Positions 9,480 to 30,971 of a stretch of DNA of 46,325 nucleotides are shown here, piece by piece. Below the pieces are notes generated by a model. It saw only the letters and a program-made list of their open reading frames with translations. It was not told the origin of the DNA and ran no database searches. The DNA is from Gammaproteobacteria bacterium. GTDB lineage: Bacteria > Pseudomonadota > Gammaproteobacteria > Tethybacterales > Persebacteraceae. The position numbers were made by a program, and so were the translations under genes. The DNA is taken from the NCBI GenBank assembly GCA_051008975.1, contig JBPCXA010000144.1:1-46325 (forward strand). Direction: 5' to 3'. Every line of letters starts with the position of its first letter. Position 1 is the first letter of the stretch.

Positions 9480-12236
9480 ATGCCCGACATCTTCGGTGGC
9501 GCGGAAGTCCTTGAGGACCCTTTCGAGGGTGCTCCGGTCGTCGATCAGGCGATTCCTCCGCGCGATCCGATAGAGACCGGGCCCGAATCGGCCCGCGTGC
9601 GCTCGCGATTCCCGATCCCTACCGTGGCCGGCGGACCCTTCGCCGGCACCGAGGCGCCGGATCCGCGCGGCTTCGTTGCGCAACCCACGGTCGGCATGAT
9701 CGCCGAGGAGTTCGGCATCTCGACCGAGGGTGCGCCGGCCATGGCCCGTCTCCTGGCCAACCTCGGCATCGGCAGCGGCGGCAGCGAGCAGGAGCTGGCC
9801 GAGGTCCGGGCCGGTCTGGAAAAGGGCTTCGCATCCCCTGTGGAAGTCAGGATCGGACCGGAGACCGGTGAGCTTGAGTTCCGCCTAAAGGGAACCGAGC
9901 GCTTCACGCTGTTCAACAGGCCGGGTCCCGATATCGGTGATATCGCCGCGGCCGGTCCGGATATCGCAACGGCGACGGTCGAGGTCGCCGCCGGACTCGG
10001 AGCCGCCGCCGTGGCATCGCCGACCGGTCCCGCCGGCATGGTGGCGGCGGTGGCGACCGGCGAAGTCCTGACCGCCTTCACGGCCGAGGTGGTCAAGCTG
10101 AACATCGCCCAGAGCCAGGGCCTGCCGATCGACGATGAGCAGATCTGGCGGCAGGCGATCCTGGTCAGTGGTCTGACCGGAGCCGGCGGCGTCGTGCTGC
10201 CGCTGGCGGCAAAGATCTTCCGGCGCGTCACCGGACAGCTGCCCAAGGCGATCGCCGACCTCGATCTGCCGGAAGTGCTCGCGACCCTGGAGCGCGGCGA
10301 GGCCGCCTCGGGCGACGTGGAGCGTCTGGTACGCGAGCGTTTCGGCCAGGAGCTGCACTTGACCACGGGTCAGGCGACGCGCGATCCGGTCTTCCTCGAA
10401 GCCGAGAACACAGCGATGCGCAAGAGCACCGGACGGCTTCTGCGTGATATACGTCTCGGCCAGGACACTACGGTCAACGCGATCCTCGATGATATCTTCT
10501 CGGCCACGACGCCCCGTGAATCGGAGTTGGCAGTCGGCCGCCGGATCAAGCAGTTGGCCGGCAGGACCGTCGAAGGCACATTGGCCCGGCGCCGCCAAGT
10601 CGCCAAGACCGCCGGAGATGTCGCCGACACGGCGCAGCAACGCTTTCTCGGCCTGGCCGACGTGCCGAGCGCTGCGGCCCAGGCGGCGCGCGAGAACATT
10701 GTCCAGGCGCGCAGCCGCGCGCTGCTGCCGTTCGACGCCGAATATGACGAGATCGAGGCATTCGGCGAGATCCCGATCGACCTCGCCACGGTGCGCAGCC
10801 AGGCGCGCGAATTCGGCGATGAACTGTCGGGCCTCATCTTCCAGTCGGTCCAGAAGGACGATCTGCCGATGATCCGTGAGGGACTCGAAGCCGGCGTCAC
10901 TGAAATCAGAAACCTCAGGTTCGGTACCGACGGCGTCCTGGAGTGGATCACCACAAGAGGCAGCGAGCCGGTTCCCTTGAGGATCGTGCAGCGGGATCTT
11001 TCAAATCTGCGCGATACGCTGAGGCGCGTCGACAAGGGTCTTTCGGACAAGCAGCGGCGCATCGTCCAGGGCTTCCACAATGCGCTTCTCGCGGCGCGCA
11101 ACCAGGGCCTCGCAGGCTCGGATAATCCGAATGCCTACTGGCAAGTCATGAACACCGAGAATCGTTACCGGATCTTCAAGGAGAACTACGACCGCGGCGT
11201 CATCGGCAACACGCTCTCCACGGTCGAGGGCGGCCAGTACCGCCTAGCGGATGAGCAACTCATCCCGCGCCTGCTGTCGCGGTCGAGCGAGATGCGCCAG
11301 TTCGTCGGTGTGCTCGGGGATCCGTCGAACGTCAACGGCAACATGGCGATCTTCCAGTTGAAGCGCGGTATCCTCGGTCTGGTCGAGCAGCGCCTTGCCG
11401 ATCGCCCGAGCGATACCGCCGAGGCGGCCGTTCTGACCGGCTTCCTGCGGCAGAATTCGGAATCCTTGCGTGGTATCTTCACGGCTGACGAGATGGCCGC
11501 CTTTTCCAATCTGCGCAATCTCAAGCTGGCGGCGAAGAGCGCCGACGATACGCTCGCCGAGGTCACCAAAAACGTCAACAAGACGCTCGCCCGGAAGGTC
11601 TCGCGCTACGATTCCAACGAGGTCGTCAACGAGCTGCTGAAGACCGAGAAGATCGACGATCTCAAGACCGTACGCAGCGGACTGAGGCAGGCGGATCCCG
11701 ATCTTCTGGCCGATTTCGACAATGCCTTCGCGCGGCGCATCCGCGACGACATCACGACTTTCGATAGAGGCAGCAACCGGTCGGTGACAACCTTGACCAG
11801 CCTTACCCGGTTCCTGGAAACGGGCCGGGTCGCCCAGGCGCGCGAGGTGTTCGGTGACCAGTACGTGAAGGATCTGGAAATCCTCACCGCGGCTATGGCG
11901 GCGGTCGAAGACACACCGACGGTGAAGGCCGACGATCTCGCCAAGGTGTTCAGGATCGAAACCGGCTTGCGCGGCTACGCCCGGTTCCTGCGTGTGCCGT
12001 TCCCGCCGCTCAGCCCGCGAGGCCGGGCGCTCACCGCGGTCACCGGCGTCGCCCATGAGGCGGCCCAGCGCCATCTCGCCGATGCGCTCGCCGATCCAGC
12101 CAAGCTGCATGATCTCGTGCAGCTCAGGACGACGACGCTTTCGAGCACCAAGGCCCAGGCTCTGCTCGGCGCGACCGCCGCTTCCGTCCTGATCGATCCG
12201 CCGGAGAGCGCTCTCAAGGGCATCATCGGGGATTAA
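9480..12236 (+). CDS. Large internal virion / ejection protein candidate (918 aa)
   Basis: Starts 1 nt after the upstream stop. Largest gene in the genome. Its position matches podovirus core proteins. I recognised no muralytic motif. Confidence 0.45.
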   Translation: MPDIFGGAEVLEDPFEGAPVVDQAIPPRDPIETGPESARVRSRFPIPTVAGGPFAGTEAPDPRGFVAQPTVGMIAEEFGISTEGAPAMARLLANLGIGSGGSEQELAEVRAGLEKGFASPVEVRIGPETGELEFRLKGTERFTLFNRPGPDIGDIAAAGPDIATATVEVAAGLGAAAVASPTGPAGMVAAVATGEVLTAFTAEVVKLNIAQSQGLPIDDEQIWRQAILVSGLTGAGGVVLPLAAKIFRRVTGQLPKAIADLDLPEVLATLERGEAASGDVERLVRERFGQELHLTTGQATRDPVFLEAENTAMRKSTGRLLRDIRLGQDTTVNAILDDIFSATTPRESELAVGRRIKQLAGRTVEGTLARRRQVAKTAGDVADTAQQRFLGLADVPSAAAQAARENIVQARSRALLPFDAEYDEIEAFGEIPIDLATVRSQAREFGDELSGLIFQSVQKDDLPMIREGLEAGVTEIRNLRFGTDGVLEWITTRGSEPVPLRIVQRDLSNLRDTLRRVDKGLSDKQRRIVQGFHNALLAARNQGLAGSDNPNAYWQVMNTENRYRIFKENYDRGVIGNTLSTVEGGQYRLADEQLIPRLLSRSSEMRQFVGVLGDPSNVNGNMAIFQLKRGILGLVEQRLADRPSDTAEAAVLTGFLRQNSESLRGIFTADEMAAFSNLRNLKLAAKSADDTLAEVTKNVNKTLARKVSRYDSNEVVNELLKTEKIDDLKTVRSGLRQADPDLLADFDNAFARRIRDDITTFDRGSNRSVTTLTSLTRFLETGRVAQAREVFGDQYVKDLEILTAAMAAVEDTPTVKADDLAKVFRIETGLRGYARFLRVPFPPLSPRGRALTAVTGVAHEAAQRHLADALADPAKLHDLVQLRTTTLSSTKAQALLGATAASVLIDPPESALKGIIGD

Positions 12237-12598: not shown

Positions 12599-13027
12599 AT
12601 GCCGGCGGCTTATAAAGAAACTCAATTCCGCGACAGGCTAACCAAGACCATTGGCGGCCCGATGTGGTCCAAGATAGAAACCGGGCTTTCGACGACCGGA
12701 GTGCCTGATCTCTATGGTATCGACCACGGCGTCAGCATCTGGATTGAATGCAAGATCGTGGCGGGACGCCGGCTGCGTCATCCGCTCAGACCCTTGCAGG
12801 CTTTTTGGCATCGTGAATATTGGTTGTCCGGTGGCCGCTCTCTGGTCGTGGCGAGCGAGCGACACAACGGCGGGCCGCGTCTTGGGCCACCGGTCGACCG
12901 AATCCATATCTGGACGCCCGGACACCTCGCGGAGAACGGTAGCATACCGCTCGACAACATCGATGTGGGATCGTTCGACGCGCCGTTCGATTGGCCGCTG
13001 ATCAAAAAAAAGCTATTCGAGGCTTGA
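12599..13027 (+). CDS. VRR-NUC / PD-(D/E)XK family nuclease
   Basis: GVPDLYG...SIWIECK...PLQAFWHRE...GG...VV matches the VRR-NUC signature. Lies next to the SNF2 helicase, a known phage pairing. Confidence 0.75.
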   Translation: MPAAYKETQFRDRLTKTIGGPMWSKIETGLSTTGVPDLYGIDHGVSIWIECKIVAGRRLRHPLRPLQAFWHREYWLSGGRSLVVASERHNGGPRLGPPVDRIHIWTPGHLAENGSIPLDNIDVGSFDAPFDWPLIKKKLFEA

Positions 13028-13053
13028 CGGAAGACATAACCGTCGTTTATGCT
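13024..13053 (+). promoter_or_regulatory. Sigma-70-like promoter of the replication operon
   Basis: TTGACG-N18-TATGCT, followed by a CTCCTC-N11-GAGGAG hairpin at 13052..13074. Lies in the only gap between the VRR-NUC and SNF2 genes. Confidence 0.55.
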
Positions 13054-13128
13054 CCTCATTCAAGTCACGAGGAGCAAGCGACGCCCCTTGCCGTCGTTGC
13101 GGTCTGTTCCCGAGAGAACGAGAGAACG

Positions 13129-13353
13129 ATGACCCAGATCACCGTCGCTCGAATTTGCCTGGGACGAGGTACGATGAGCGCTCCCGACTGGCGTATATTG
13201 CTCCGAAAATATATCGCATACATCCGATGGTGGGAGGGTTCTGACGGTTTGGTTACGAAAACATCTGGCGATCCTGATATCCCCCAAGAAGAATGGGATC
13301 TTTTAAAGGGCGTTGCGGAAGAGATCGATAGTGAAAAGAAGACGAGACGATGA
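13129..13353 (+). CDS. Hypothetical protein (74 aa) sharing its first 7 codons with the SNF2 gene
   Basis: ATG after GAGAGAACGAGAGAAC. Begins MTQITVA, the same as the gene at 13350. Stop overlaps the next ATG. The longer ORF-track version (12991) would run through a promoter. Confidence 0.6.
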   Translation: MTQITVARICLGRGTMSAPDWRILLRKYIAYIRWWEGSDGLVTKTSGDPDIPQEEWDLLKGVAEEIDSEKKTRR

Positions 13354-15026
13354 CCCAGATTACCGTCGCCCAGGGCAAGATCTACATCCGCACGCCGTTC
13401 CAAAACAAAGACCGGTGTAAGGCGATCAACGATGCTCGCTGGTCGCCGACGAACAAGTGCTGGTACTATCCGGCGACGCCTGCCACCGCGCGGGCAATCA
13501 TGACCGGCTTCAATGGTCAGCAAGTGAAAAGCGATGAAGCGTTCCAAGAACTTTTTGCAGAATCGGAGATAACCAGACATATCAACAAAGCACGTGATTT
13601 TGGCTTTCTTTCTGGATTGCCGGAGCCACGAAGTAAGACCAAATCCTGGGACCATCAAACGAAAGCATTTCATTTTTGCAAAGATAAATCCGCAACTATG
13701 CTCGCCTTCGAGATGCGCTGCGGCAAGTCCAAGACGGCGATCGATCTGGCAGTCCACTGGGATGCCCGTCTGGTTCTGGTCACTTGTCCGCTTTCGGTCC
13801 TGCCAGTGTGGTTTTCCGAATTCGGTACCCATGCCGCGGAGGATTATCGTGTTCTTTTACTGAGCAAAGGCTCGACCAAGAATCGAGCGCGCGAGCTTGG
13901 GCAATTCGTCGATCTCTGCCGTACGGCGAAATGCCGCGGCGCCGTCGTCGTCAACCATGAAGCTTCATGGCGCGAGGACATGGCCAAGGTCATCCTTCAT
14001 GCCGACTTCGATCTTCTGATCGTCGACGAGAGTCACCGTGCCAAGGACCGGCGCGGCAAGTTCTCCGGGTTCCTCAACAAGCTGGCGGCCCAGGTGCCGC
14101 ATGTCCTGGCATTGACTGGCACGCCGATGCCGCATTCGCCGATGGATATCTTCGCGCAGTACCGATTCCTCGATCCGGGCATCTTCGGCACGTCGTTCTT
14201 CAAATTCCGCAACCGTTTTGCGGTCATGGGCGGCTGGCAGGACAAGCAGATCGTCGGTTACCAGAACCAGGAATTGCTGTCGGAGCTGTTCAATTCGATC
14301 GCCTACAGGGTGAAGCAACGCGACGCGATCGACCTGCCGCCCGAAGCCGATATCGAGCGCTACTGCGAGCTGAGCCCGGAGGGACGGCGGGTCTACGAGG
14401 AGCTAAAACGCAACTTCGTCGCCGAGGTCAAGGGCGGCATCGTCACCGCTTCAAACGCCATGGTCAAGATCCTGCGTTTTCAACAGGTGACCAGCGGTCA
14501 TGTCAAGCTGGAAGACGGCAAGACAATCCTTATCGACGGTGGGGAGACGCCGCCCAAGCTCAAGCTGCTCAAGGAAGTAATCGACGACGAATCGGCGCGC
14601 AGCAGATCCGAAACCAGACCGTTGCATGTTGTCGTTTTTTGTCGTTTCCGCCGAGATCTCGATGAGATCAAGCGACTCTGCCAGTCCGAAGGAAAGTATC
14701 AGTACGGCGAGATCTCTGGCAGCCGGAAAGACCTGACTGAACAAGCGAAGATGCCGAGCTGGTGCGAGGTCATGGGGGTCCAGGTCCAAGCCGGCGGCAT
14801 GGGTATCGACCTGTCGCGGGCGGCCACCTGTATCTTCTATTCGACGGGATTGGCGCTCGGCGACTACGAGCAGTGCAAGAGCCGGGTGAAGAGCCATGCC
14901 AGCGCCGCCAAGATCACCTATATCCATCTTTTGGCGCGCGAGACCTACGACGAGACGATCCTGAAGGCGCTGACCCAGCGCAAGAACGTAGTCGAGTATG
15001 TCATGCAGCTGGCGAAGGGCACATGA
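13350..15026 (+). CDS. SNF2-family DEAD/H helicase
   Basis: Motifs CGKSKT (I), LIVDESHRAK (II), LALTGTPMPHSPMDIF (III), QAGGMGIDL (V), QCKSRVKSH (VI). Confidence 0.9.
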   Translation: MTQITVAQGKIYIRTPFQNKDRCKAINDARWSPTNKCWYYPATPATARAIMTGFNGQQVKSDEAFQELFAESEITRHINKARDFGFLSGLPEPRSKTKSWDHQTKAFHFCKDKSATMLAFEMRCGKSKTAIDLAVHWDARLVLVTCPLSVLPVWFSEFGTHAAEDYRVLLLSKGSTKNRARELGQFVDLCRTAKCRGAVVVNHEASWREDMAKVILHADFDLLIVDESHRAKDRRGKFSGFLNKLAAQVPHVLALTGTPMPHSPMDIFAQYRFLDPGIFGTSFFKFRNRFAVMGGWQDKQIVGYQNQELLSELFNSIAYRVKQRDAIDLPPEADIERYCELSPEGRRVYEELKRNFVAEVKGGIVTASNAMVKILRFQQVTSGHVKLEDGKTILIDGGETPPKLKLLKEVIDDESARSRSETRPLHVVVFCRFRRDLDEIKRLCQSEGKYQYGEISGSRKDLTEQAKMPSWCEVMGVQVQAGGMGIDLSRAATCIFYSTGLALGDYEQCKSRVKSHASAAKITYIHLLARETYDETILKALTQRKNVVEYVMQLAKGT

Positions 15027-15271
15027 TCAGCTTTGCCACCGAGATGCTGGATTGGTGCCTGGGACAGCGCATGAATGCCGTCAACCTCTTGATGAAAACT
15101 TTGTTCAAGAACGAATGCTGGATCGTCATGGCACTGTCGGAAGAGGAAAAAGCATGGGAAGCGCGCGGTAATCTGTCGCGAATGCAGCTGGCCGAGGTCG
15201 CCGAATACGTCCTTGACGTAGCGACTGAAGATTCGAGTGACGACGAGCCTGGCGAGACCGTCATGCATTGA
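15023..15271 (+). CDS. Hypothetical acidic protein (82 aa)
   Basis: ATGA overlap with the SNF2 stop. In frame with the ORF-track 14762..15271 tail. Confidence 0.55.
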   Translation: MISFATEMLDWCLGQRMNAVNLLMKTLFKNECWIVMALSEEEKAWEARGNLSRMQLAEVAEYVLDVATEDSSDDEPGETVMH

Positions 15272-15278
15272 GGAGCCT

Positions 15279-15560
15279 ATGGACGCCGAAGTTATCGATA
15301 ACCAAAATCCCTTGCGGGCGTGGCGTTTCAGTCATCATCCGGTCAAGACTCAAAGCCAGATTGCGACCCTGCCGGAGTTGTGCGTTACGGAACAGACCGT
15401 ACGCAACTGGGAGAACGGCAGGGTGTTGCCTGCCGAGCACCATCTCTATGCCTTGAGCCTAATCATGGGCAACCCAAACCTAGCGAGCGAATGGTATGCA
15501 TGGCGCCGCTTAACAATGGAGCAAGCTGATGGGAACCAAGAGACTCGTCGGGAAACGTAA
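15279..15560 (+). CDS. XRE-family helix-turn-helix protein (93 aa)
   Basis: GAGGAG RBS. TQSQIATLPELCVTEQTVRNWENGRVLP is a classical HTH_3 pattern. Confidence 0.75.
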   Translation: MDAEVIDNQNPLRAWRFSHHPVKTQSQIATLPELCVTEQTVRNWENGRVLPAEHHLYALSLIMGNPNLASEWYAWRRLTMEQADGNQETRRET

Positions 15561-21101: not shown

Positions 21102-21298
21102 GCGCCTTGGTCGGCATGTTGGCCATGTTGATGCGCACGATCATCATGAAACCGAATGGCAAATCACGCGAGCAGGAAATGTTGCGCCGCGATATCGATA
21201 ATATCCAATCGATCGTCTCAGAGATGCGTCGCGACATTGATCGGCTCTACACCCGACGCGAAATCGAGGAGCGGATTCAAAGAGAAAAACAGCAATGA
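21056..21298 (+). CDS. Membrane-anchored coiled-coil protein (80 aa)
   Basis: One TM (AVFGTLGALVGMLAMLM) followed by a charged helix. The stop overlaps the helicase ATG. Confidence 0.5.
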   Translation: METNDSIWRAVFGTLGALVGMLAMLMRTIIMKPNGKSREQEMLRRDIDNIQSIVSEMRRDIDRLYTRREIEERIQREKQQ

Positions 21299-22887
21299 AG
21301 GAATATCATGTCTATGGCCCGCCGGGCACCGGCAAGACTCGGCGCGCCGAACAGGATGTCGTCAGGGCGGCCGAGAAATTCGGCAAGGACCAGGTTTTGG
21401 TGACTGCATTTACGCGCGCCGCTGCCGCCGAGCTGATCGATCGCGATCTCGATATTCCGAAACGCAACGTCGGCACCTTGCATTCGATTTGTTACCGCGC
21501 GCTTGACCGGCCGATCCTGGCGGAAACCAAGACTGCCGAATTCAACGAGCTGCACCCTAACTTCGCGGTCGCCAGCGCCAAGGTCAATGTCGAGGAAGGC
21601 AAGATCGAGGCAGGTCAAACGAACGGCCAGAGCAATCTACTGCAGACCTATCAGCTGCATCGTGCCCGCATGACGCCGCGCGATGCCTGGCCGAGCGAGG
21701 CGGTCAGAAATTTCGCAAAACTGTGGGAAAGCTGGAAAAAGGATACCGGCTATTATGATTTCACCGACCTCATTCAAGCGGCACTTGACACGATGCCCTT
21801 CGCCCCGGGTCGGCCCAAGGTCGGCATTGTCGACGAGGCCCAGGATCTCACCGCGCTGGAATGTGCCCTTGTGCGGTCCTGGGGCATCGCCATGGAATAC
21901 CTCATCCTCATCGGCGACGACGACCAGTGCATCTTCGAATTTACAGGTGCTTCGGCCGCCAACATGGTCGGAGCGGCTTTGCCGCGAGAGCACAAACGGT
22001 TCCTGACCAAATCCCACAGGTTGCCGCGGAGGATATGGGAGTATGCGCGGGCGATCAGCGCCAGGATCGAACAGCGCCAGGAAAAGGAGTTCGAGCACAA
22101 TGGCACGGAAGGATCAGTCCATACCGCTTCATGCGGCGATTGGCGCCGGCCTGAAGCCATTGCCGACGACATGGAAGCTCGACTGGAGATTGGTGAACGG
22201 ATCATGGTGCTGGGTTCATGTGGTTACATGTTGGTGCCCCTTATCCGGGAGCTTCGTCGAAGAGGTCTTCCCTTCCACAATCCGTACCGGGTGACCCGCG
22301 GGGACTGGAACCCGATCAATCGCGCTGCCGGTTCGACCATGAACCGGATCGCCGCGTTTCTCAACGGCGCCGAGAACGTGGTGCCGAGCTGGAGCGTCGG
22401 CCAAATGGTCATGTGGACCGATCTGGTCAAGGCCAAGCATCTCCTGAAGCACGGGGGCAAGAAACGATTGGAAAAAATGAACGACGAATCGCCGGCGAGA
22501 CTGCTTGGCTATCATGACTGGCTGGAGCTGTTCGAAGAGGACCCATGGGGCTGGGATCCCTGCACATTGGACTGGCTCAAGGAGAATGCCTTGCCGAGCA
22601 AGCTGAAACAGATGGAATACCCGATGACCGTGGTCGAGAAGCATGGCCTGCAGACCCTGCTCGACCGGCCGAGGATCGTGGTTGGCACGATACACAGCGT
22701 TAAGGGCGGCGAGGCCGATACGGTCTACGTTTTCCCGGATCTTTCGACCCAGGGCAGCCTGCGTGCGCTCGATGCCGAGAGCGATCACACCATGCGGCTG
22801 TTCTATGTCGCCGCCAGCCGGGCTCGGCATAACCTGGTACTGTGCAGGCCGGCCGGGCCTTACTTCGCGAGGTTGCCTGATGCGTAA
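21295..22887 (+). CDS. UvrD/Rep-like superfamily-1 DNA helicase
   Basis: GPPGTGKT (Walker A), GIVDEAQDL, LIGDDDQCIFEFTGAS, SHRLP, TIHSVKGGEADTVYVF, YVAASRARHNLVL. Confidence 0.85.
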   Translation: MKEYHVYGPPGTGKTRRAEQDVVRAAEKFGKDQVLVTAFTRAAAAELIDRDLDIPKRNVGTLHSICYRALDRPILAETKTAEFNELHPNFAVASAKVNVEEGKIEAGQTNGQSNLLQTYQLHRARMTPRDAWPSEAVRNFAKLWESWKKDTGYYDFTDLIQAALDTMPFAPGRPKVGIVDEAQDLTALECALVRSWGIAMEYLILIGDDDQCIFEFTGASAANMVGAALPREHKRFLTKSHRLPRRIWEYARAISARIEQRQEKEFEHNGTEGSVHTASCGDWRRPEAIADDMEARLEIGERIMVLGSCGYMLVPLIRELRRRGLPFHNPYRVTRGDWNPINRAAGSTMNRIAAFLNGAENVVPSWSVGQMVMWTDLVKAKHLLKHGGKKRLEKMNDESPARLLGYHDWLELFEEDPWGWDPCTLDWLKENALPSKLKQMEYPMTVVEKHGLQTLLDRPRIVVGTIHSVKGGEADTVYVFPDLSTQGSLRALDAESDHTMRLFYVAASRARHNLVLCRPAGPYFARLPDA

Positions 22888-23455
22888 ACCAGTCGACGCG
22901 AGACCCAACTTCGGCCAGATCACCGGATCGAATCCGCGCGCGATCATACAATCGAGCAATCAGGTCGTGGCCAACATCACCAGACTGCTGCGCCGATACG
23001 GACGGCATATCAATCGCAACCCGGCGGGCCAGACGTTGGTCCTGGTGCATCGCAACGGAGCCAATCAGGCATCGATTGCGGGGACACCGACCCTGGTGAA
23101 TTACACAACGGCGGCGATCGACAACAACAACAGCTGGTTCGATCTGACGAGCGAGCGTTTCATCCCCAAGGTCGAAGGCTGGTACCTGCTGGCGGCGGCG
23201 GCCAAGTTCCAAACCCCGGGAGACGGTATAGTGATTCAGCAGCGACTGACCAAGAACGGCTCTACGGTGGTCGCTATTGCAGACGCAGTCCCCGGAGCCG
23301 GCGGTGTCAGTGTGTCGTGTCCGGCATGCCTGGTGATGGTCGAATTCAACGGCTCGACCGACTATGTCGAGCATTATGTCTTACAGAGCGGCGGCGGCGG
23401 TACACTACAAGGCGCCAGCGAATCGACCAGATTCATGGCTTGGCGGCTGCTCTAA
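22880..23455 (+). CDS. Beta-rich protein (191 aa), possibly a jelly-roll / C1q-like fold
   Basis: GAGG RBS. ATG overlaps the helicase end. F.PKVEGWYLLAAAAKF...NGS...VEFNGSTDYVEHYV pattern. The fold guess is tentative. Confidence 0.45.
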   Translation: MRKPVDARPNFGQITGSNPRAIIQSSNQVVANITRLLRRYGRHINRNPAGQTLVLVHRNGANQASIAGTPTLVNYTTAAIDNNNSWFDLTSERFIPKVEGWYLLAAAAKFQTPGDGIVIQQRLTKNGSTVVAIADAVPGAGGVSVSCPACLVMVEFNGSTDYVEHYVLQSGGGGTLQGASESTRFMAWRLL

Positions 23456-23712
23456 TGTAATACAATACGGCCCGCCCTGACCGCCGCGGTGATATAGTCG
23501 CCGGCTTGGACCAACTGAAAATCGAAATCAACCTCCTGATTCCATTGAATCGCCGATCCGCGTGCTAGATAAGCGGTATATTCGGCGGCCGACATGCTAT
23601 GGCGGCGCTGCGAGATATAACCGAGAATCTCGGCGTCGATCTGGCCATGGGAGGTCCAGGGCGCCAGCTCGTCGCCATTCCCGAAATGCGTTTGGAGCTT
23701 GACATCGGCCAT
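23452..23712 (-). CDS. Hypothetical protein (86 aa), solitary reverse-strand gene, probably leaderless
   Basis: About 80 percent G/C at third codon positions on the minus strand. Stop overlaps the stop of the convergent + gene. ATG lies inside the promoter-like inverted repeat at 23699..23747. Confidence 0.6.
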   Translation of the reverse strand: MADVKLQTHFGNGDELAPWTSHGQIDAEILGYISQRRHSMSAAEYTAYLARGSAIQWNQEVDFDFQLVQAGDYITAAVRAGRIVLH

Positions 23713-23728
23713 AAGTTATGTTTATGCT
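23699..23728 (+). promoter_or_regulatory. Sigma-70-like rightward promoter of the small-ORF operon
   Basis: TTGACA-N18-TATGCT, the same architecture as the promoter at 13024. Confidence 0.6.
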
Positions 23729-23747
23729 TAAACCAGTCGGATGTCAA
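23719..23747 (-). promoter_or_regulatory. Possible leftward promoter for the 86-aa reverse gene (would give a leaderless mRNA)
   Basis: On the minus strand: TTGACA-N17-TAAACA, then 6 nt, then the ATG. The -10 is poor (no terminal T). Confidence 0.3.
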
Positions 23748-23758
23748 GGGCAAGCTAT

Positions 23759-24181
23759 ATGAAACGCTGCATCTTCTGCGACGCTGAAATGAAGCCCACT
23801 TGGCGAATCTGCCAATCGTGCTTCAAGGTACAGCCGCGGCACTGCCGCGAATGCGGCACCGAAATTCATGAAACGCGGAGCTTGCAAGCGGAGACCTGCG
23901 GGCGAAATTGCATGCAACTGATACAGAACCGGCGCCGGCAGCGCGGCGCGGTTCTCTACGACATGTTCATGACCATGCGTTTTGAACGCGACAAAGCGGC
24001 ACAAGAGCAATTATGGTCGATCATGTGTCGCCAAGCCGCGCACTGGCGCGAGCAAGACGAAAAAGAGATTCACAAGGCACGATCATGGGGCGATCCGATG
24101 CCCTATGTCCAGCAGAACCCGTGGCTGAGACAGAGCACGACCAGTCACAGGATTAAGATAGGCGCATCGGCGCTGCGGTAA
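23759..24181 (+). CDS. Multi-CxxC zinc-finger protein (140 aa)
   Basis: CIFC...CQSC...CREC...CGRNC motifs. ATG 23759 is about 24 nt downstream of the predicted transcription start. An alternative ATG is at 23741. Confidence 0.6.
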   Translation: MKRCIFCDAEMKPTWRICQSCFKVQPRHCRECGTEIHETRSLQAETCGRNCMQLIQNRRRQRGAVLYDMFMTMRFERDKAAQEQLWSIMCRQAAHWREQDEKEIHKARSWGDPMPYVQQNPWLRQSTTSHRIKIGASALR

Positions 24182-24253
24182 GGAATTGCAACACCCTCCC
24201 CTTCCCCTGGCTGCTCGGCAGAGTGTGGTGGGTGGTGCCGTGATGGAGGAAAT

Positions 24254-24610
24254 ATGATGCAAAAGTATGGGCACAGGGCCAACGATGCTGCCCGGCAAAA
24301 CGACCCGAACAACAATTTTTTGTGTCAGGTCTGCGGCGAAAATGCGGGCTTCAACTGGAGTGATCTACACGGTGAGGGCATGTGTAATCGCTGCGGCATA
24401 CCATATAATTTAAAAGAAAAACCATTCAAAATCAATATTAATGACGAATGGGTACCTGTTTTCAAAAAATATTGGAAAGAGACCCAAGATTACATCGGTG
24501 CTGGTCAAATTTTGATTGAGCGAGATTACCCGGAATGCGTCAAAGGGATGCAACGATTTTATGCATGGCTTGGTGAACATCCTGAACACAAGCCAGAAGA
24601 ACAACCATGA
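24254..24610 (+). CDS. Zinc-ribbon protein (118 aa)
   Basis: GGAGGA RBS (the second ATG at 24257 is better spaced). CQVCG...CNRCG motif. Confidence 0.65.
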   Translation: MMQKYGHRANDAARQNDPNNNFLCQVCGENAGFNWSDLHGEGMCNRCGIPYNLKEKPFKININDEWVPVFKKYWKETQDYIGAGQILIERDYPECVKGMQRFYAWLGEHPEHKPEEQP

Positions 24611-24656
24611 CCCCCGACCAGGAACATTCTCGCTGGGCCGATAGAACGGAGATGAG

Positions 24657-25088
24657 ATGAGCGAAGTGAGCCCAAAAATGTTACAGGCATGTGCAAGGGC
24701 ATGGCGAAAGCGCGTCGAAACCGCAGAAGCCGAGGCCGCCAAGCTCCGGGCAGCGCTAGAAGCAGTGAATGCTGCAACCTACTCCCATGTTGACGGGCGC
24801 GACTTACTGGCCGAACTGCATCCGCGCAAGCAGATCGATATCGTGCGACGGCTAGACGCTAAAGAAACATGGTTCGAGGGTGATTGGCTTTCACGCCTGT
24901 ATGAGGCCATGAAGGTTGCCCGCCAAGCCCTCTCCGGCTCACCCGACCCCGTAGCTGAAGCAGAGCGGGCGGTGGTCGAAGCGGTGGATGCTGATTGGCA
25001 CCGGCCAACGGCGATAAGACTACAAGCCCTGCTGAAAATCTACGGCAACCTCGCCAAGCTCCAGGGCAAGGGGGAGAGTGATGACTAG
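24657..25088 (+). CDS. Hypothetical helical protein (143 aa)
   Basis: GGAGATGAG upstream of the ATG. Uninterrupted ORF. Confidence 0.6.
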   Translation: MSEVSPKMLQACARAWRKRVETAEAEAAKLRAALEAVNAATYSHVDGRDLLAELHPRKQIDIVRRLDAKETWFEGDWLSRLYEAMKVARQALSGSPDPVAEAERAVVEAVDADWHRPTAIRLQALLKIYGNLAKLQGKGESDD

Positions 25089-30897: not shown

Positions 30898-30971
30898 GGC
30901 GATTCATCATTGATTAATAAACGGTATTTATGGTAATGGTGACTCTCCAGCAAGCATGAAAGGACAAGGTT

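Follow-up and report, generated by a model that had tools for sequence, protein, structure and literature searches.

A candidate bidirectional promoter in a 46-bp divergent gap of a tailed phage genome

A complete tailed phage genome carries a 46-bp gap between an 86-aa reverse gene and a rightward operon of small ORFs, and we consider it about evenly probable that this gap is a pseudo-symmetric sigma-70-type bidirectional promoter, strong in the rightward and weaker in the leftward direction. In the sequence, a pair of extended-consensus −35 boxes (CTTGACAT) points inward from either side of one common −10 region. TTGACA-N18-TATGCT would act as a strong early promoter, read by the host primary sigma factor and driving the small-ORF operon, with a paralogous copy that would drive the replication module. 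TTGACA-N17-TAAACA would be weaker and would start at, or 1–2 bases from, the A of the ATG, giving a leaderless or near-leaderless monocistronic mRNA for an orphan accessory protein. Since the core promoters occupy the same DNA, one polymerase would exclude the other, and rightward transcription would win mostly, thanks to its better −10. The predicted outcome is low-level or conditional expression of the 86-aa gene, with no heritable bistable state. Such a site would fall into a described class of bacterial bidirectional promoter and would represent no new kind of biology.

Phage genome and its bin

The window (the whole 46,325-nt stretch of DNA analysed here) is contig C144 of a 2.35-Mb metagenome bin. 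An exact 127-nt repeat at both contig ends (1–127 and 46199–46325) indicates a circularly closed assembly of 46,198 bp, hence a complete phage genome, which is very divergent. Matches to PHROG and Pfam families identify a tailed phage, with head and adaptor proteins on the contig in addition to the landmarks listed in Table 1. The + strand holds nearly all genes, the exceptions being the 86-aa ORF and a cassette at ~27.2–29.0 kb; an earlier reading of this DNA made from the sequence alone (hereafter the sequence-only reading) had called the 86-aa gene a solitary reverse gene, which is correct locally but not genome-wide. By one test applied to all, a Shine-Dalgarno sequence is present in 16 of 39 phage genes and absent from the other 23.

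Table 1. Positions in the window of the divergent gap, its flanking genes and selected landmarks of the phage genome.
Feature	Position	Strand	Remarks
Tail protein	3985		PHROG/Pfam match
Paralogous one-way promoter	13023..13053	+	CTTGACG-...-CATAA-N5-GTTTATGCT; ahead of replication module
SNF2-type helicase	13350		PHROG/Pfam match
Primase	17296		PHROG/Pfam match
UvrD-like helicase	21295–22887		PHROG/Pfam match
86-aa ORFan gene	23452..23712	−	ATG at 23712; no Shine-Dalgarno; acidic product, pI 5.3
Left arm, CTTGACATC	23698..23706	+	Holds rightward −35 TTGACA (23699–23704)
Palindrome CATAA-N7-TTATG	23710..23726		Spans leftward start codon and both −10 regions
Candidate leftward −10	23718..23724	−	TAAACA (23724–23719, spacer 17) or AAACAT (23723–23718, spacer 18)
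GTTTATGCT	23720..23728	+	Contains rightward −10 TATGCT (23723–23728); one of 8 GTTTATGST copies
Predicted rightward start	23735	+	An A, 7 nt past the −10; predicted from the sequence
Right arm, CTTGACATC on − strand	23740..23748	−	Holds candidate leftward −35 TTGACA (23747–23742)
First gene of rightward small-ORF operon	23759..24181	+	140-aa double zinc-ribbon protein, basic, pI 9.5
Small terminase (terS)	34307		PHROG/Pfam match
Large terminase	37241		PHROG/Pfam match

The RpoB of the bin is only ~61% identical to that of the nearest named genomes, all Proteobacteria. In the rest of the bin, TANNNT ends 7–8 nt before the ATG in 61 of 747 confident genes, against a background of ~4–5 per position. 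These leaderless-type hexamers are nearly all TATAAT or TACAAT with no −35 consensus, and a Shine-Dalgarno-like sequence accompanies only 18% of these genes. A leaderless phage gene would be unremarkable with the bin organism as host. The link between the two is doubtful, because the promoter style differs, because the tetranucleotide profile differs (correlation with the bin of 0.71 for the phage contig and 0.88 for other contigs), and because a search for spacer-like matches between the phage and the rest of the bin found none. The bin may not be the host of the phage, and its abundant leaderless genes were excluded as support for a leaderless 86-aa mRNA.

Predicted promoter elements of the divergent gap

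The rightward hexamers match the consensus at 10 of 12 positions with an 18-nt spacer, as is characteristic of a sigma-70-type promoter, and form the sole + strand match within 22500–25000. Among 462,180 site/spacer combinations ranked by a rough weight matrix for sigma-70 (the host polymerase may weigh the −35 differently), the site at 23699 stands 2nd in the genome and the site at 13024 stands 10th. Of 31 core positions the two promoters have 21 in common, including ten that lie outside the hexamers; both contain CTTGAC, CATAA six bases on, and GTTTATGCT five bases further. In the replication-module copy both a leftward −35 and a leftward gene are absent, so that it serves as an internal control for the two-way site. 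Transcription from the predicted rightward start would give a 24-nt leader to ATG 23759, with AAGGG (23746–23750) placed 8 nt before that ATG. The right-hand gene most likely starts there rather than at 23741, since without this start the first CxxC...CxxC zinc ribbon would be lost. For its product we found a match to phrog_20494 and homologues both in Microcystis phage yong2 and in the related contig L004.

The 9-mer around the rightward −10, GTTTATGST, has 8 genome copies where 0.27 are expected, a number that 0 of 100 shuffles reached. Its copies lie at 13045, 23720, 28519(−), 34005, 34027, 34051(−), 34135(−) and 35112, with a near-copy at 30926, and seven of the eight are non-coding. A TTGAC box stands 18 nt upstream of the −10 hexamer only at 13045 and 23720. 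GTTTATGST may be a phage-specific −10 or regulator site that divides early promoters, which have a −35, from later ones, which lack it. Copies without a −35 precede a pentapeptide-repeat gene or flank terS, those before terS lying in an AT-rich block. The rest of the bin holds 0.6 copies per 46 kb and no TTGACR-N17/18-TATGST site. A second element, CATAA-N7-TTATG, has 4 matches with at most one mismatch where 0.35 are expected; besides the gap, these lie at 13035–13051, within the paralogous promoter, and as one-mismatch copies at 30916 and 34045. Both recurring elements mark + strand promoters genome-wide rather than this locus specifically.

The sequence-only reading had judged TTGACA-N18-TATGCT a good sigma-70 promoter, and the hexamer match, the second rank, the paralogue and the enriched 9-mer all agree with it; as a predicted promoter, the rightward site is well supported and looks real. 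Together, the early promoters at 13023 and 23699 would provide a first outline of regulation in a phage that otherwise resists annotation, with the phage-specific 9-mer marking most of its other non-coding control regions. Scanning for the promoter skeleton gave no match in viral contigs and one in metagenome contigs (L090, 3223–3253). As this is a low-GC bacterial contig, we take it to be probably a chance or convergent match. On L090 a relA/spoT-like gene starts at the CAT of CATAA, and leftward TTGCGA-17-TAAACT-6-ATG gives the same two-way, leaderless-looking layout.

At the gap, the sole 46-bp divergent gap, lies a perfect inverted repeat, CTTGACATC and GATGTCAAG, with 33 bp between the arms. 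The repeat lies where the sequence-only reading had put its 8-bp cores (TTGACATC at 23699–23706 and GATGTCAA at 23740–23747), and is 9 bp long rather than 8. Each arm contains a consensus −35, TTGACA. The left arm falls within codons 3–5 (D-V-K) of the 86-aa reverse ORF, and the right arm overlaps the probable ribosome-binding site AAGGG of the right-hand gene. The 9-bp arm matches the extended sigma-70 −35 consensus, tCTTGACAt as reportedly given by Hawley and McClure in 1983, so that an operator is unnecessary to explain the repeat beyond its hexamers. We rejected an operator reading of CTTGACATC because its distribution in the genome is not regulon-like, with no further non-coding copy.

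As a repeat, the element is unexceptional. Counting 9-bp inverted repeats with a gap of ≤60 nt gave 34 k-mer hits, compared with 19 ± 6 (maximum 35) in Markov-1 random sequence, and the 9-bp repeat by itself is within chance for this genome. TTGACATC has 3 genome copies where 1.4 are expected, and TTGACA is not enriched (14 copies on both strands versus 15.2 expected). It is the placement of the facing TTGACA pair, two of the 14 hexamers confronting each other inside a 46-bp divergent gap, rather than the repeat itself, that is unlikely by chance.

Leftward, the perfect −35 is followed by an optimal spacer of 17 nt, TAAACA, 6 nt, and the ATG of the 86-aa gene. TAAACA lacks the −7 T (position 6), consistent with the weak −10 already suspected here; the alternative AAACAT lacks the T at position 1 and would shift the start 1–2 nt into the ATG. 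Among the 462,180 combinations, the site takes rank 17 or 34. TAAACA is the reverse complement of TGTTTA, which is conserved in the rightward motif, and the one-way paralogue has TAAACG; the leftward −10 could be a by-product of the rightward motif. It ends 7 nt upstream of the A in the ATG, which is the modal distance among leaderless genes of the co-binned genome. Because TTGACA occurs just 14 times on both strands, we estimate the chance of a perfect copy at any of the few offsets that put the start on the ATG at ~1 in 1000. The −35/−10/ATG geometry is as the sequence-only reading described it and suits a leaderless transcript; a leftward promoter is plausible. The absent Shine-Dalgarno is weak, nonspecific evidence for a leaderless 86-aa mRNA, since the 23 of 39 phage genes noted above lack one too.

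The two −10 regions do overlap, as had been proposed, their hexamers coinciding at the TA step 23723–23724, and the predicted starts at ~23735 (rightward) and ~23712 (leftward) are 23 bp apart, one of the registers described for bidirectional promoters. Such promoters account for ~19% of E. coli start sites (bioRxiv 10.1101/2020.01.31.928960), with acrR/acrA and soxS/soxR as examples (Warman et al., bioRxiv 10.1101/2020.01.31.928960; Nucleic Acids Res 2026, PMC12825309). Overlapping −10 elements in symmetric registers give starts 7–25 bp apart (PMC12825309; bioRxiv 10.1101/2020.01.31.928960). The commonest distance is 18 bp, with 10 and 23 bp frequent as well (PMC12825309), and a spacing of 23 bp is one of those found enriched (bioRxiv 10.1101/2020.01.31.928960). 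Like the bacterial promoters of Warman and Grainger, the predicted phage site has starts less than 25 bp apart, overlapping −10s with symmetric bases (here TA), polymerase binding in only one orientation at a time, a −35 of its own on each side to set directional strength, and a position between divergent mRNA genes, which is common for the class. It differs in that both −35s are perfect, whereas basal activity is weak in the E. coli examples that were tested, in that the leftward −10 lacks the −7 T, and in that it lies in a phage genome and its starts are predicted from sequence.

The two sides of a bidirectional promoter mostly fire independently unless one is strong, for example through an improved −35; steric exclusion, plus competition once the −35 is improved, has been demonstrated experimentally (PMC12825309). 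As both −35 boxes here are consensus, interference is expected. That RNA polymerase would occupy one orientation at a time, a further proposal of the sequence-only reading, fits the overlap of the core promoters and what has been stated for such promoters (PMC12825309). If both directions fire, the gap would be a clean natural phage example of a bidirectional promoter with two consensus −35s, a regime for which recent E. coli work predicted strong polymerase competition and which it did not find among native promoters.

A possible but clearly less probable explanation is that the rightward promoter alone works. The right arm would then be there by chance, or as a piece of the zinc-ribbon gene's 5' UTR and ribosome-binding region, and the 86-aa ORF would be read with a long leader from a promoter further right on the − strand, or would be unexpressed. 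Several observations agree with this: the leftward −10 is a poor one dictated by the conserved rightward motif, the repeat is within chance, the right arm overlaps AAGGG, and stronger leftward promoter-like sites exist at 24435, 24465 and 24429 in an AT-rich part of the gene at 24254–24610. The ORF, moreover, is an ORFan without homologues whose codon score is equalled by some spurious ORFs (below). Yet these ~24.4-kb sites may score well merely through base composition, and a rightward promoter on its own leaves unexplained a perfect, correctly oriented TTGACA with a 17-nt spacer exactly at the start of the sole local leftward gene. The leftward −35 is missing from the paralogous one-way promoter, and the ORF has gene-like codon usage, above all in its first 39 codons.

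The stretch at 24400–24470 on the − strand, an AT-rich part of a low-GC3 gene, holds the top-scoring leftward promoter-like sites of the genome, among them 24435 (TTGATT-17-TAAATT), and these may act as antisense promoters or reflect base composition.

The 86-aa reverse gene and its slot

The 86-aa ORF fills its gap exactly. ATG 23712 is the only available start, as an in-frame TAA lies two codons upstream, and the stop overlaps the stop of the upstream + gene. Using a codon model trained on ten long phage genes and compared with 23 genes outside the training set, we found that the ORF scores 0.277 bits per codon (log-likelihood ratio), against an average of 0.21 ± 0.23 for the held-out genes; 3 of 113 wrong-frame ORFs of at least 60 aa reach this score. 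The first 39 codons score 0.43, which argues that the N-terminus is coding. The gene caller of the source collection likewise predicts the ORF, and strand skews and RNY statistics were uninformative on it. By its coding potential, the 86-aa ORF is probably a real gene.

Homology searches revealed no relative of its product: none in about 15 billion proteins, no tblastn match among phage records, no credible homologue in a word-indexed search of 5.8 billion clustered proteins or in a full HMMER search over 1.8 billion representatives, and no match in Pfam, PHROGs, NCBIfam or PDB sequences. The sole non-self match, a 981-aa repeat protein (P0003), was discarded as unreliable, its E value of 6.5e-7 being the sum of five weak repeat matches at 28% identity. 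The same family and PDB searches agree with the earlier remark that the protein contains no HTH. Structure prediction, which had been proposed as a check on a regulatory role, gave a single-sequence AlphaFold2 model with a pLDDT of 41, which is unusable and does not back the idea of a regulator.

Homologues of the helicase at 45–50% identity led us to five metagenomic contigs with the same order of the replication module. In four of them (L003, L004, L006 and L007) an array of small unrelated ORFs on the reverse strand comes immediately after the helicase, and in L008 one + gene lies between helicase and array; the position is therefore a variable accessory slot. None of the five carries the 86-aa gene, the junction or the promoter motif, and their small reverse ORFs at the slot (86, 111, 129 and 82 aa) do not resemble the 86-aa protein. 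The zinc-ribbon homologue in L004 (9214–9537, −, 47% identity) lies within the reverse array, indicating that its orientation is not conserved. Neither blastn against phages nor IMG/VR peptide scans with the helicase and the zinc-ribbon protein gave a match.

Phage "morons" are lone accessory genes, each with a promoter of its own, that have been inserted between conserved modules. The 86-aa gene resembles them as an orphan single gene on the opposite strand with its own candidate promoter, and in its position at a module boundary, where relatives carry unrelated small reverse ORFs. In contrast to morons, it has no convincing terminator, and its GC content is like that of its surroundings. A candidate terminator at the convergent junction, 23467–23484, was not supported. 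Among the relatives, L008 has tandem iterons at 11340–11525, with CTGTTTCAAT repeated about five times and CGTCCTTGAGGCGTTCC four times, which look like a replication origin.

Possible competition, switching and RNA pairing

Because both −35 boxes are consensus, it is conceivable, and in our estimate unlikely, that competition between the two directions works as a toggle. Bound polymerase would shut off the other direction, and a phage protein on GTTTATGST / CATAA-N7-TTATG would tip the balance, tying 86-aa expression to the early-to-late transition of a virulent phage. The combined element covers both −10s and marks the replication-module promoter and several −35-less sites ahead of late genes. 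Phage proteins that might bind it include an HTH_3-like ORF at 15237–15560 and an Aca3-like regulator near 33 kb. Were this true, a timing switch would arise from promoter symmetry and not from a repressor/operator circuit.

More improbable still is the regulated bistable or mutually exclusive switch of the sequence-only reading, its direction set by the 86-aa protein or another phage protein acting on the arms or on CATAA-N7-TTATG. A leaderless precedent does exist in the lambda cI mRNA from PRM, and the layout is similar in that a small gene points away from the early operon and has an mRNA predicted to begin at the AUG. The palindrome covers both −10 regions and recurs at three further sites, and a centre-to-centre distance of 42 bp puts the arms about four helical turns from each other. 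Strong competition is expected from two consensus −35s, and competition is seen when a −35 is improved (PMC12825309). A protein on the central palindrome, however, would block both directions and not select one, the arms as extended −35 consensus make an operator superfluous, and CTTGACATC is without other non-coding copies that could serve as the reiterated operators of a lambda-like switch. Nor does the 86-aa protein, which is acidic and without HTH, family match or confident model, look like a regulator; searches of Pfam, PHROGs, NCBIfam and PDB found no HTH repressor beside the divergent promoters.

The contig also gave no match to tyrosine integrases (PF00589) or serine recombinases (PF00239), the two families searched, and thus shows no integration module; with neither integrase nor resolvase matched, a lysogeny switch is not supported. 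Lambda PR and PRM lie back to back ~80 bp apart and are coupled via three operators and CI/Cro. Here, by contrast, operators, HTH repressor and integrase were not found, and the −10 region is common to both directions, whereas lambda has no shared −10. Overlapping divergent promoters had been taken as a hallmark of phage switches, a view at odds with the ~19% of E. coli start sites that are bidirectional (bioRxiv 10.1101/2020.01.31.928960). The bistable-switch reading is unsupported, and the predicted bidirectional promoter would entail competition, not bistability.

Least probable, and very doubtful, is an effect at the RNA level, in which the arms pair in read-through transcripts from the replication module and hide the zinc-ribbon ribosome-binding site, leaving transcripts that start at the promoter, and so lack the left arm, to be translated. 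In the predicted fold the arms do pair, with AAGGG next to the right arm, and no convincing terminator lies between the upstream + genes and this region, but the stem has only 9 bp and closes a 33-nt loop, and we rejected the hairpin since its stability does not exceed that of shuffled sequence (z of −0.36 for the + strand, −0.81 for the − strand).

Two further features were noted. A 23-nt repeat (13126–13148 and 13347–13369, 22 of 23 identical) gives a small ORF at 13130–13352 and the SNF2-type helicase identical first codons, MTQITV. Directly after the UvrD-like helicase, a 191-aa ORF (22880–23455) has weak PHROG matches to C-terminal parts of tail or virion proteins (E ~4e-4 to 7e-4); an NGSTDYVEHY-like peptide is common to it and the 798-aa tail protein. 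For a replication module, a domain of structural type is odd.
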